From NCBI GenBank assembly GCA_039025295.1, contig JBCCOR010000071.1, forward strand, positions 1 to 11,927: DNA of 11,927 nt, given 5' to 3'. Position 1 is the stretch's first letter; every line of letters begins with the position of its first letter. This document shows, in pieces, positions 7,676-9,646 of this stretch. The notes beneath the pieces were generated by a model. It did not search any database, was not told the origin of the DNA, and saw nothing but the letters and a program-made list of their open reading frames with translations. A program made the position numbers and the translations under genes. Origin of the DNA: Acidobacteriota bacterium. Its GTDB lineage: Bacteria; Acidobacteriota; Thermoanaerobaculia; Multivoradales; J023.

Positions 7676-9646
7676 TCAGCCCAGCTTGACGTCGTCGAGG
7701 CCGAGCTCCCGCGCCAGCTGCATCAGGCGCGCGGCCTTCTGGGCGGTCTCGGGATCGTCCGCGGCCGAGCCGGCCGTCAGCACGCGGCCGAGCGCCGCGG
7801 CGACGGTGAGATCGCGCAGGCCGGTGGCGTCGAGGCGGCTGTGGGTCAGGACGTCCTTGAGGTCCTGGCGCAGATCGGCGTCGCCGTCGGTGTAGCCGGC
7901 CAGCGCCTGCTGCGCCAGCTGGCTGCCGTCGACGAAGCGGTCGGTCGCGCGCGCGGCCGACAGCGCGCCCACCACGCGGTCGAAGAACACGCTCTCGCCG
8001 CCGACGATCTCGACCTTGGCCTCGCGCAGGCCCTCGGCGACCACGCCCGCCTGGGCCTCGGCGATCGTGCGCTGCGTGCGCTGCTGGGCGAGCTCGATCG
8101 CCTGCGCGGTCTCGAGCTTCAGGCGCACCTCCTCGTGGTTGCGCGACGCCGGGTCCATCGCCGCCAGCGCCTTGGCCTTCTCCATCAGGCTCTCGGCCGC
8201 GGCCAGGCCCTGCTGGCGCATGACCTCGGCCTGCGCGCGGCCGGCCTTCTCCTGCGCCGCCGCGTCGGCTTCCTTGACCCGCGCCTCGGCCAGGCCGAAC
8301 TTCTCGGTGGCGTCGGCGTCGCGCTCCTTGACCGACACCTTGGCCAAGCCCTCGGCCGCGGCCTGCGCCTGGGCGCCCTCGGCCAGGCGGATCTGCGCCT
8401 GCGCTTCGCGCTCGGCGGCCTCGCGCGCGGCGTCGGCGAGGGTCAGCTGCTCCTTGGCTTTGAACTTCGACGCCGCTTCGAGCGCCTCGGCGGCCTTGAT
8501 GTCCTTGACCAGCTGCTCCTGCGCCGCGCCCTCGGCGTCGATGATGCGCGCCTCCTTCTCGCGGTTGGCCAGCTCGACCTTGCGCAGGCGCTTGATCGCC
8601 TCCTCCTGCTCGGCGACGGTCTTGTCGACCGCGATGCGCTCGCGCACCACGTCGGCGATGGCGCGCTTCTCGTGCTCGAGCTCCTTGTCTTTGGAAATGC
8701 GCTGCAGCTCGACCTCGCGCTCGCGGCCGATCACCTCGAGCTGGCGCTCCTTCTCGACCCGCTCAGTCTCGACGGCGACGACGCGCTCGCGGTTCTTCTC
8801 GGCGACGGCGACCTGGCGCTTGAGGTTCTCTTCCTGCACCGCGATCTCCTCGTCGGTGCGGATGCGCGCGGTCTCCGAGCGCAGCCGCTCCTCGGCCTGC
8901 ACCTTCGCGGTCTCGGCCTCTTCGTGCGCCTGCACCGAGGTGACCTCGCGCAGCTGGCGCGCCTCGGCGTCGGACTTCTGGCGATCGAGCTCGAGAATCG
9001 CCTCGCGCGCCTCGACGTCCTTCGCCTTGATCTCCTTCTCCTCGTCGCGGCGGAACTCGTTGGTGCGCACGTTCTCGATCGCGGTCAGCTCGGTGATCTT
9101 GCGGATGCCCTGGGCGTCGAGGATGTTGTCCTTGTCGAGGTCGGTGAGCGGCGTCTGCTCGAGGTAGTCGATCGCGGCGTCCTCGAGCACGAAGCCGTTG
9201 AGATCGCGGCCGATGACGCCGATGATCTGGTCGCGGAACTCCTCGCGCTGGGTGTAGAGATCGACGAAATCGAGCTGCTTGCCGGCGGTCTTGAGCGCCT
9301 CGGAGAACTTGGCGGTGAAGAGATCCTTGAGCGTCTCGGGATCCGATGCGCGCGCGCAGCCGAGCGACTGCGCGACCTTGATCACGTCGTCGTGGGTCTT
9401 GTTGACGCGGACGAAGAAGTTGACCTTGATGTCGGCGCGGATGTTGTCGCGGCAGATCAGGCCGTCGGCGCCGCGGCGGTCGATCTCGATCGAGCGGACG
9501 GAGATGTCCATCAGCTCGGCCTTGTGGATGAACGGCATGACCACCGCGCCCGAGAAGCTGACGGTCACGCGGTCGCGCAGGATGTTGTTTAGAATCAGAG
9601 CTTTGCCCTGATCCACTTTGACGATACCGAGACGAAAACCTGCCAT
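7676..9646 (-). CDS. Flotillin-like SPFH/band-7 family protein (656 aa) with a long Glu/Ala/Arg/Lys-rich coiled-coil (flotillin) region. No N-terminal transmembrane segment is evident.
   Basis: ATG at 9644-9646 (complement) is preceded by GGAGGAG (revcomp of 9653-9659) about 7 nt upstream. The N-terminus AGFRLGIVKVDQGKALILNNILRDRVTVSFSGAVVMPFIHKAELMDISVRSIEID...NIRADIKVNFFVRVN matches the SPFH fold start (vv.p.eaaiV..fG...r.l.pG..f..Pfi..v..vd.r...l......Tkdn..v.vd). It is followed by approx. 300 aa of heptad-like E/A/R/K/Q-rich sequence (EAREAILELDRQKSDAEARQLREV..., AAEREAQAQIRLAEGAQAQAAAEGLAKVS) as in FloT/YqiK/flotillin-1. The stop TGA is at 7676-7678 (complement). The ORF-track start at 9769 adds 41 non-hydrophobic residues over the intergenic region, and I regard that extension as spurious. 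Confidence 0.85.
   Translation of the reverse strand: MAGFRLGIVKVDQGKALILNNILRDRVTVSFSGAVVMPFIHKAELMDISVRSIEIDRRGADGLICRDNIRADIKVNFFVRVNKTHDDVIKVAQSLGCARASDPETLKDLFTAKFSEALKTAGKQLDFVDLYTQREEFRDQIIGVIGRDLNGFVLEDAAIDYLEQTPLTDLDKDNILDAQGIRKITELTAIENVRTNEFRRDEEKEIKAKDVEAREAILELDRQKSDAEARQLREVTSVQAHEEAETAKVQAEERLRSETARIRTDEEIAVQEENLKRQVAVAEKNRERVVAVETERVEKERQLEVIGREREVELQRISKDKELEHEKRAIADVVRERIAVDKTVAEQEEAIKRLRKVELANREKEARIIDAEGAAQEQLVKDIKAAEALEAASKFKAKEQLTLADAAREAAEREAQAQIRLAEGAQAQAAAEGLAKVSVKERDADATEKFGLAEARVKEADAAAQEKAGRAQAEVMRQQGLAAAESLMEKAKALAAMDPASRNHEEVRLKLETAQAIELAQQRTQRTIAEAQAGVVAEGLREAKVEIVGGESVFFDRVVGALSAARATDRFVDGSQLAQQALAGYTDGDADLRQDLKDVLTHSRLDATGLRDLTVAAALGRVLTAGSAADDPETAQKAARLMQLARELGLDDVKLG

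Follow-up and report, generated by a model that had tools for sequence, protein, structure and literature searches.

The flotillin gene and the sequence upstream of it

SPFH proteins, to which flotillins, HflK/C, prohibitins and stomatins belong, are cage builders that wall off patches of membrane, often around AAA+ machines, and in bacteria most of them are fixed to the membrane by a transmembrane (TM) helix of their own. Here, we describe a flotillin gene from an Acidobacteriota bacterium whose product has no such helix. The gene is located on a stretch of 11,927 nt (contig JBCCOR010000071.1, positions 1 to 11,927), which was analysed as a whole and is referred to as the window. The coding sequence occupies positions 7676..9646 of the minus strand and specifies 656 amino acids (aa) plus stop. 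It was assigned from the list of open reading frames (ORFs), from homology to YqiK of Escherichia coli and from a 100% identity of the product to an NCBI entry named "flotillin family protein", which stems from an Acidobacteriota metagenome-assembled genome (MAG). The ORF is real and intact. A Shine-Dalgarno sequence, GGAGGAG (9654..9660, minus strand), can be read directly from the sequence 7 nt before the ATG at 9646, just as a preliminary description of this DNA had stated. The flotillin gene is followed, 13 nt downstream and in the same orientation (its stop ends at 7676 and the next ATG lies at 7662), by a gene for a 1,918-aa partner protein (1906..7662, minus strand), for which Pfam and AlphaFold2 (AF2) predict a DUF3686 (beta-propeller) region, a DUF7902 domain and an AAA_5-like AAA+ domain.

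Whether a segment is TM-grade was judged by Kyte-Doolittle maxima in 19-residue windows (KD19). The complete flotillin reaches a maximum of 1.16, compared to 2.05-3.5 for the N-terminal helix of anchored homologues, so that the central claim of the preliminary description, the lack of an N-terminal membrane anchor, holds. The sole in-frame extension possible starts with a GTG at 9769 and adds 41 residues, which had been described correctly as Arg/Gly-rich and non-hydrophobic (maximum KD19 of -0.45). A hidden TM segment or a frameshift was also sought by KD19 in the other upstream frames of positions 9647-9900 (minus strand) and none was found; the maxima of the three frames are 0.19, -0.38 and -0.45. 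An alternative start that yields a hydrophobic segment, for which a check had been proposed, is thus present neither in the extension nor in the upstream frames. A membrane anchor cannot be encoded at the N-terminus, in the extension or in the frames of the upstream spacer. This divergent intergenic spacer of 238 nt (9647..9884), in which no frame is hydrophobic, lies at the site where orthologous loci carry a YqiJ-like gene (see below). A sigma-70 consensus scan of the spacer gave no match, a promoter/terminator consensus scan was likewise empty, and a clear break was not seen in the composition profile. The first residues of the flotillin include no Cys, hence there is no lipobox, and no lipidation signal is evident.

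Predicted fold of the flotillin and of its AAA+ partner

With the full-length flotillin as query, zero matches were obtained in Pfam (E≤10), NCBIfam, PADLOC and the PDB sequences, and a profile of 66 homologues retrieved nothing meaningful from the PDB. When the N-terminal 231 aa were searched alone, the Band_7 family (PF01145) was detected at residues 10-153 with E=1.4e-9 and 38.7 bits (cut-off 23.6). We attribute the silence of the full-length query to the fact that two thirds of the protein are Ala/Glu/Arg-rich (overall composition: 16% A, 12% E and 9% R). The precomputed Pfam fields of the flotillin's homologues are mostly empty too. Domain-based censuses are therefore likely to overlook the family of this anchorless flotillin.

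An AF2 monomer model was calculated from the 66 homologues and has a mean predicted local distance difference test score (pLDDT) of 72. It begins with a predicted SPFH (Band 7) domain at residues 7-164 (9155..9628, minus strand), which is supported by the PF01145 match, by a pLDDT of ~90 and by Foldseek. This is followed by Ala/Glu-rich wall helices at residues 175-313, 325-496 and 499-542 (8021..9124, minus strand), which were delimited from the AF2 secondary structure and the composition and which align to the coiled coil of YqiK and, over ~383 columns, to flotillin chains. The 66-sequence alignment then revealed a conserved "VEIVGGES" motif at residues 545-552 (7991..8014, minus strand), which is of an "IDIVGGES" type in the family; I547, G549 and G550 never vary, and I545, D546 and V548 hardly do. 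In the AF2 monomer model this motif is a low-confidence loop. By analogy with the cap strand of flotillin (PMC11260169), we infer that it may form an inter-subunit cap beta-strand. The protein ends with a C-terminal helical domain at residues 553-656 (7679..7990, minus strand; AF2 helices at 551-647). The Pfam Flot family (PF15975) did not match the C-terminal 216 aa or residues 321-500 at E≤10.

The top matches of a Foldseek search against the PDB were all SPFH-family or vault cage subunits. These included prohibitin (E=1e-9), flotillin (4e-9), HflK/C (~1e-7), major vault protein (MVP; 3e-6) and QmcA-YbbJ (6e-6), as well as erlin and stomatin. The SPFH/flotillin identity given in the preliminary description is thus borne out by the Band_7 match of the N-terminal 231 aa, the AF2 fold, Foldseek and the homology to YqiK. 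Judged by its sequence relationships, the protein is a genuine SPFH protein and a YqiK homologue, which belongs to a distinct subfamily of ~660 aa. As modelled, its domains are arranged as in the protomers of SPFH proteins that build rings or cages, and a cage or vault-like shell would fit the predicted fold with its SPFH domain, very long wall helices and cap motif.

The homology to E. coli YqiK extends over the SPFH domain and the coiled coil (BLASTP: 29% identity over 402 columns, E=1e-33). Residue 53 of YqiK aligns to residue 29 of the window protein, and the ~24 extra N-terminal residues are those of YqiK. They contain the hydrophobic anchor stretch FTAIIAVCILFIIGIIFA, which the window protein lacks, so that the alignment to YqiK, which had been recommended, places the missing TM segment here. 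Further differences are the Pfam Flot domain, which is found in YqiK with E=6.4e-41 but not in the window protein, and the length, since the window family is ~100 aa longer. The eukaryotic flotillins 1 and 2 are likewise SPFH proteins without TM helices that possess a long helical wall as well as a cap strand, and they yielded the longest structural alignments (~383 columns) at 16-18% identity to the window protein. They reach the membrane via acylation and a Trp/Cys-rich SPFH1 surface (PMC11260169), whereas no acylation route is evident in the window protein. MVP forms a soluble cage and resembles SPFH proteins in its shoulder and cap-helix region (Foldseek E ~3e-6). However, only the SPFH and helix part aligns, with TM-scores of ~0.2, and none of the MVP repeat or vault Pfam domains occurs in the window protein.

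In the 1,918-aa partner, Pfam detected DUF3686 with E=7.7e-195, DUF7902 with E=1.6e-26 and AAA_5 at residues 1335-1458, the latter being the best-covered ATPase model (positions 2-125 of 139). The ATPase region contains a Walker A motif, SPPGYGKTT (residues 1339-1347), and a Walker B motif, LLYLDD (residues 1403-1408), and the stretch MAGNPYTEAGEAFQIPDMLANRAD appears to resemble the MoxR-type signature. No TM-grade segment is present (maximum KD19 of 1.31), and no peptidase domain was found by Pfam. Residues 1-720 were modelled by AF2 with a pLDDT of 87.8 and a predicted template modelling score (pTM) of 0.75; in the model, an N-terminal helix precedes a beta-rich domain (~65-435), after which comes a helical bundle. 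Foldseek with this part gave only weak sialidase and prolyl-oligopeptidase matches (TM-score ≤0.26) and no specific functional lead, and we read the predicted beta-rich domain as a generic beta-propeller. A Pro/Ala-rich linker, PPAVPDPPAPVPPAPAPASPVPPVPS, at residues 1785-1812 (2227-2310, minus strand), which is preceded by an Asp/Ala-rich low-complexity stretch, lies between the AAA+ region and a C-terminal helical domain of ~100 aa.

In NCBI, the partner and its homologues bear the name "DNA repair ATPase", which goes back to Pfam DUF3686. This name is unsupported by the characterised parts of the partner, which are beta-propeller-like, helical and AAA_5-like. In the limited library of literature that was searched, DUF3686 is not mentioned, nor is there anything on a module of flotillin and DUF3686. 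DUF3686 homologues were also noticed in Gammaproteobacteria, namely in Pseudomonas fluvialis, Ca. Venteria ishoeyi and MAGs of Moraxellaceae and Xanthomonadales; going by these homologues, the partner family is broader than the phyla of the flotillin loci. A reading of the two genes as a defence system was rejected: the flotillin has no PADLOC match, the partner matches PADLOC only at the level of the Walker A motif (E of 3e-3 or weaker), and there is no PHROG support.

Anchorless relatives and the three-gene module

A short N-terminus, for which a check of the orthologues had been suggested, is common among the relatives of the window protein. As the closest orthologues have it too, the second refuting condition of the preliminary description, an anchored N-terminus in orthologues, does not apply either. 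In the sample of the best 120 database proteins (57-72% identity), 56 have one N-terminal TM helix directly ahead of the motif R(F/L)(Y/F)RKVEQGKALI, whereas 64 are without an N-terminal TM helix and begin 6-15 residues ahead of KVEQGKALI. Six of the 64 retain the juxtamembrane motif R[FL]YRKVE, and their starts have probably been mis-called, so that 58 credible anchorless proteins remain. Their N-termini are distinct, as for example MAxGI(V/I)KVEQ, MIPYPRKVEQ or MAFGLIKTEQ. The DNA was read at nine anchorless loci (L001, L002, L004, L083, L084, L085, L087, L088 and L089), and no hydrophobic in-frame segment was found upstream of the flotillin in any of them. Eight have an in-frame stop 1-53 codons upstream; the ninth, L083, has an in-frame extension of 330 codons, which is Arg/Pro-rich and contains no TM-grade segment. 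Among 80 retrieved GTDB species representatives, 79 are anchored, and the anchored ones are mostly Actinomycetota. This suggests that the anchored form is the default of the family, from which a conserved anchorless variant was derived.

The window flotillin keeps all of the 140-plus columns that are invariant across the 66-sequence alignment, which argues that it is not decaying. It shares with the anchorless group the N-terminal signature GIVKV and the 12-residue spacer ALI..F(S/T)G, and is mixed at other columns that are diagnostic for anchorless versus anchored proteins. A neighbour-joining analysis with 100 bootstrap replicates, which addressed whether the window protein falls within the anchorless clade or lost its anchor on its own, gave low support: in 37% of the replicates the sister group consisted mostly of anchorless proteins, and in 47% this held for the clade next to it. 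A further difference between the two groups concerns the loop G33-x-x-V-x-P38. Of the 58 anchorless proteins, 31 have W or F at position 35 and 28 have one of these residues at position 37; in the anchored proteins, where the three commonest residues per column were considered, position 35 is F in 3 of 56, and neither W nor F occurs at position 37. With V35, M37 and F39, the window protein is hydrophobic here but not aromatic-rich. The aromatic loop recalls the SPFH1 surface of eukaryotic flotillins, which is Trp-rich and inserts into the membrane (PMC11260169), and is a hint that residues 33-38 might compensate for the lost anchor in the anchorless group.

At the level of gene order and sequence, the flotillin is part of a widespread, conserved module, which consists of a YqiJ/NfeD-like membrane protein, then the flotillin and then a DUF3686 beta-propeller/AAA+ protein of ~1,700-1,930 aa. 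At least 587 loci in GTDB species representatives encode a relative of the flotillin (587 of 600 pattern matches), and the phyla of the module include Actinomycetota (Streptomyces and others), Myxococcota, Acidobacteriota and Planctomycetota. The gene order was determined by tblastn over 82 loci. A DUF3686 protein is encoded immediately downstream of the flotillin in 78 of them; at two of the four exceptions (L064 and L067) the sequence ends too early, and the other two (L004 and L038) have the YqiJ-like and flotillin genes without DUF3686 downstream. The AAA+ partner therefore appears near-universal in cis but is not obligatory. Immediately upstream of the flotillin, a YqiJ-like protein of 180-280 aa is encoded in 69 of the 82 loci, and this is also the case in all nine anchorless loci whose DNA was read. 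Its N-terminal region (M.EFL.AA..PT..F), which includes a hydrophobic segment, and its C-terminal region (ALIFDYD...FWV) are both conserved, and there are additional hydrophobic segments. By its gene content, the arrangement is an extended yqiJ-yqiK operon plus a giant AAA+ gene: as in E. coli, a multi-TM YqiJ-like gene lies immediately upstream of the flotillin in the orthologous loci, though not in the window, but where yqiK is followed in the annotation by sibD/ibsD and then hldE, the window family has the giant DUF3686/AAA+ gene instead.

Two side observations concern the anchorless loci. At L001 (9462-9956, 164 aa) and L087 (5425-5967, 180 aa), an SPFH-only tandem paralogue without TM segment or coiled coil lies between the YqiJ-like gene and the flotillin, with 66% and 75% identity, respectively, to the N-terminus of the neighbouring flotillin; these may have arisen by partial duplication or may constitute a small SPFH subunit in its own right. 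Furthermore, directly upstream of the YqiJ-like gene, three of the nine loci (L001:6330-8612, L002:6634-8913 and L085:6596-9088) carry a gene that we call X760. Its product measures 760-830 aa, has a Rossmann-like N-terminus (GGTGAVGG) and is not matched by Pfam. The copies are mutually 57-61% identical, and by tblastn the gene is absent from all anchored loci of the 82-locus set, so that X760 is a candidate for a fourth gene of the module, restricted to the anchorless clade.

In the window, the site of the relatives' YqiJ-like gene is taken by a divergent gene for an RHS/YD-repeat protein (9885..11927, plus strand; Pfam RHS_repeat E=1.6e-26), which has a hydrophobic, signal-peptide-like N-terminus, runs off the contig end and is unrelated to the module. 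Likewise unrelated to the module is a gene for an ApbE-family protein with a hydrophobic N-terminus at 110-1183 (plus strand; Pfam E=6.4e-21). Between the latter and the end of the DUF3686 gene, positions 1270-1728 (plus strand) form the tail of a long ORF that reads like a real protein fragment of ~150 aa; it has no meaningful Pfam match and ends in a tandem duplication, QEGRQLGV-QEGRQLGV.

Proposed membrane attachment in trans and alternative explanations

We consider it reasonably probable that the window protein is a natural TM-less flotillin of the YqiK type, whose SPFH ring or cage is attached to the membrane in trans through a YqiJ-like protein and serves the AAA+ partner. The flotillin would oligomerise into an SPFH ring or cage, and the YqiJ-like protein would hold this cage at the cytoplasmic face of the membrane, whereby hydrophobic or aromatic SPFH loops may assist. 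The cage would then scaffold or gate the AAA+ partner, by analogy with HflK/C-FtsH and the prohibitin-m-AAA protease. Since a YqiJ-like gene is kept in 9 of 9 anchorless loci, tethering by a YqiJ-like partner is the best reading. In the organism studied here, the YqiJ-like gene might be located elsewhere in the genome, or the pair of flotillin and AAA+ protein might work without it. The preliminary description had suggested that the flotillin may reach the membrane through its partner. This is the best-supported idea, but the adjacent DUF3686/AAA+ protein lacks a TM-grade segment, and the likely tether is the YqiJ/NfeD-like multi-TM protein encoded in the relatives.

There are precedents for such an attachment. 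In E. coli, an NfeD-family protein forms a cage with an SPFH protein in QmcA-YbbJ (PMC13086221, citing Tan et al. 2024), and the structure of this complex is the PDB entry 8z5g that was matched by Foldseek. The same source gives SPFH-NfeD operons and complexes as a precedent. In Bacillus subtilis, the SPFH protein YdjI/SamI is cytosolic and is recruited by YdjG/H. It is encoded in the pspA-ydjGHI operon and is predicted to be anchorless, and the membrane proteins that recruit it are encoded just upstream of it (PMC8581546; bioRxiv 10.64898/2026.02.06.704340). The mechanism proposed here is the same, the two systems being compared by description. However, no pspA or YdjG/H-type genes were seen among the window ORFs scanned or in the gene tables of the loci, the window operon has no membrane-protein gene, and the partners in the orthologous loci are the YqiJ/NfeD-like protein and the AAA+ giant. 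Calling an anchorless SPFH oligomer "unusual", as was done in the preliminary description, is overstated, since the cytosolic YdjI/SamI is documented (PMC8581546; bioRxiv 10.64898/2026.02.06.704340) and eukaryotic flotillins lack TM helices as well (PMC11260169). With HflK/C-FtsH and prohibitin-m-AAA, the window family shares the SPFH fold, which matches HflK/C and prohibitin chains, and a conserved adjacency to an AAA+ gene. It differs in that its AAA+ partner has neither a peptidase domain nor a TM segment and its ATPase is AAA_5-like and not of the FtsH type. HflK/C attach by TM helices (PMC11260169), which the window flotillin does not have, and a physical complex of the latter with its AAA+ protein is putative.

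Several points weigh against tethering by a YqiJ-like protein. The tether in this organism is a proposal from relatives, and the visible part of the genome amounts to 11.9 kb. Within these 11.9 kb, tblastn with nine queries (E≤10) gave only noise for a YqiJ-like gene, a remnant of it or an X760 gene, so that the contig is one of the rare examples that lack both the anchor and the tether gene. The YqiJ-like gene accompanies anchored and anchorless flotillins alike, and therefore its presence alone cannot explain why the anchor is dispensable. The assignment as YqiJ-like draws on topology, on position and on a Pfam match just below the threshold, the best being YqiJ_N with E=1.8e-4 and 22.1 bits (cut-off 23); when the neighbour was compared with E. 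coli YqiJ by BLASTP, nothing significant was obtained. Furthermore, there is no Trp in the candidate insertion loop of the window protein (V35, M37, F39), and the oligomer, its membrane binding and the contact between flotillin and AAA+ protein are predicted by analogy.

It could also be that the flotillin binds directly and peripherally to the inner leaflet via hydrophobic SPFH loops and its short hydrophobic N-terminus (FRLGIV), without any protein tether. The missing tether gene in the window operon, the aromatic enrichment of the 33-38 loop, which is specific to the anchorless group, and the eukaryotic flotillin, which binds via a hydrophobic SPFH1 surface (PMC11260169), would all agree with this. 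However, eukaryotic flotillins need acylation as well (PMC11260169), no lipidation signal is evident in the window flotillin, the Trp found in many members of the clade is missing from it, and the 33-38 loop is hydrophobic in anchored proteins too. We therefore regard direct binding as rather unlikely.

Unlikely, too, is a fully cytosolic, vault-like SPFH cage that makes no contact with the membrane and cooperates with the soluble beta-propeller/AAA+ giant or surrounds part of it. Such a cage is possible because both window proteins look soluble, with no TM-grade segment (KD19) in either protein of the two-gene operon, and because the tether gene is missing: the contig is without a YqiJ-like gene, and the flotillin has its own ribosome-binding site after the 238-nt divergent spacer. 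The soluble MVP among the Foldseek matches (E ~3e-6) points in the same direction. Against this stand the membrane partner kept in all nine other anchorless loci, the small part of the genome that is visible (11.9 kb) and the lack of MVP repeat domains. Moreover, the SPFH assemblies among the structural matches, vaults aside, are described as membrane-abutting (PMC12624060), and even vaults are reported to associate with membranes in situ (PMC13100048). A more specific version, to which we give about as little credence, is that this lineage has reduced the module to an entirely cytosolic two-gene system, in which a free vault-like cage would dock or enclose the 1,918-aa remodelling ATPase. If true, this would to our knowledge be the first membrane-independent SPFH compartment in bacteria.

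That the flotillin forms a hetero-oligomer with an anchored SPFH paralogue encoded elsewhere, which would supply the anchor as in HflK/HflC, PHB1/2 or flotillin-1/2, is quite improbable. The SPFH cages among the structural matches are often hetero-oligomeric, and extra SPFH genes do occur near some anchorless loci (the tandem paralogues at L001 and L087 and a 289-aa Band_7 gene at L083), but the tandem paralogues are TM-less themselves and the window contains no second SPFH gene. An artefact or decay is essentially excluded, be it through a wrongly called start, through a frameshift or through a rearrangement beside the RHS gene that broke the module: the divergent RHS gene in place of the expected YqiJ-like gene and the 6 of 64 TM-less database entries that look like mis-called starts would fit it, but no upstream frame contains a hydrophobic stretch, the ATG at 9646 has a strong Shine-Dalgarno sequence, the GIVKV signature and the 12-residue ALI..F(S/T)G spacer match the anchorless group, and both ORFs have their full length and share 53-66% identity with their orthologues, with all invariant columns kept in the flotillin.

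The gene was already annotated as flotillin, and with YdjI/SamI an anchorless bacterial SPFH protein is already known. A clade without TM helix, but with a YqiJ/NfeD-like neighbour, is nevertheless a natural experiment on the purpose of the anchor and on the role of NfeD-family partners. The pairing of flotillin and DUF3686 is the better lead. It would extend the theme of an SPFH cage with an AAA+ engine to a non-protease ATPase with a beta-propeller. The more valuable result is the widespread module of YqiJ-like protein, flotillin and DUF3686-AAA+ protein itself, which occurs in hundreds of species including Streptomyces.

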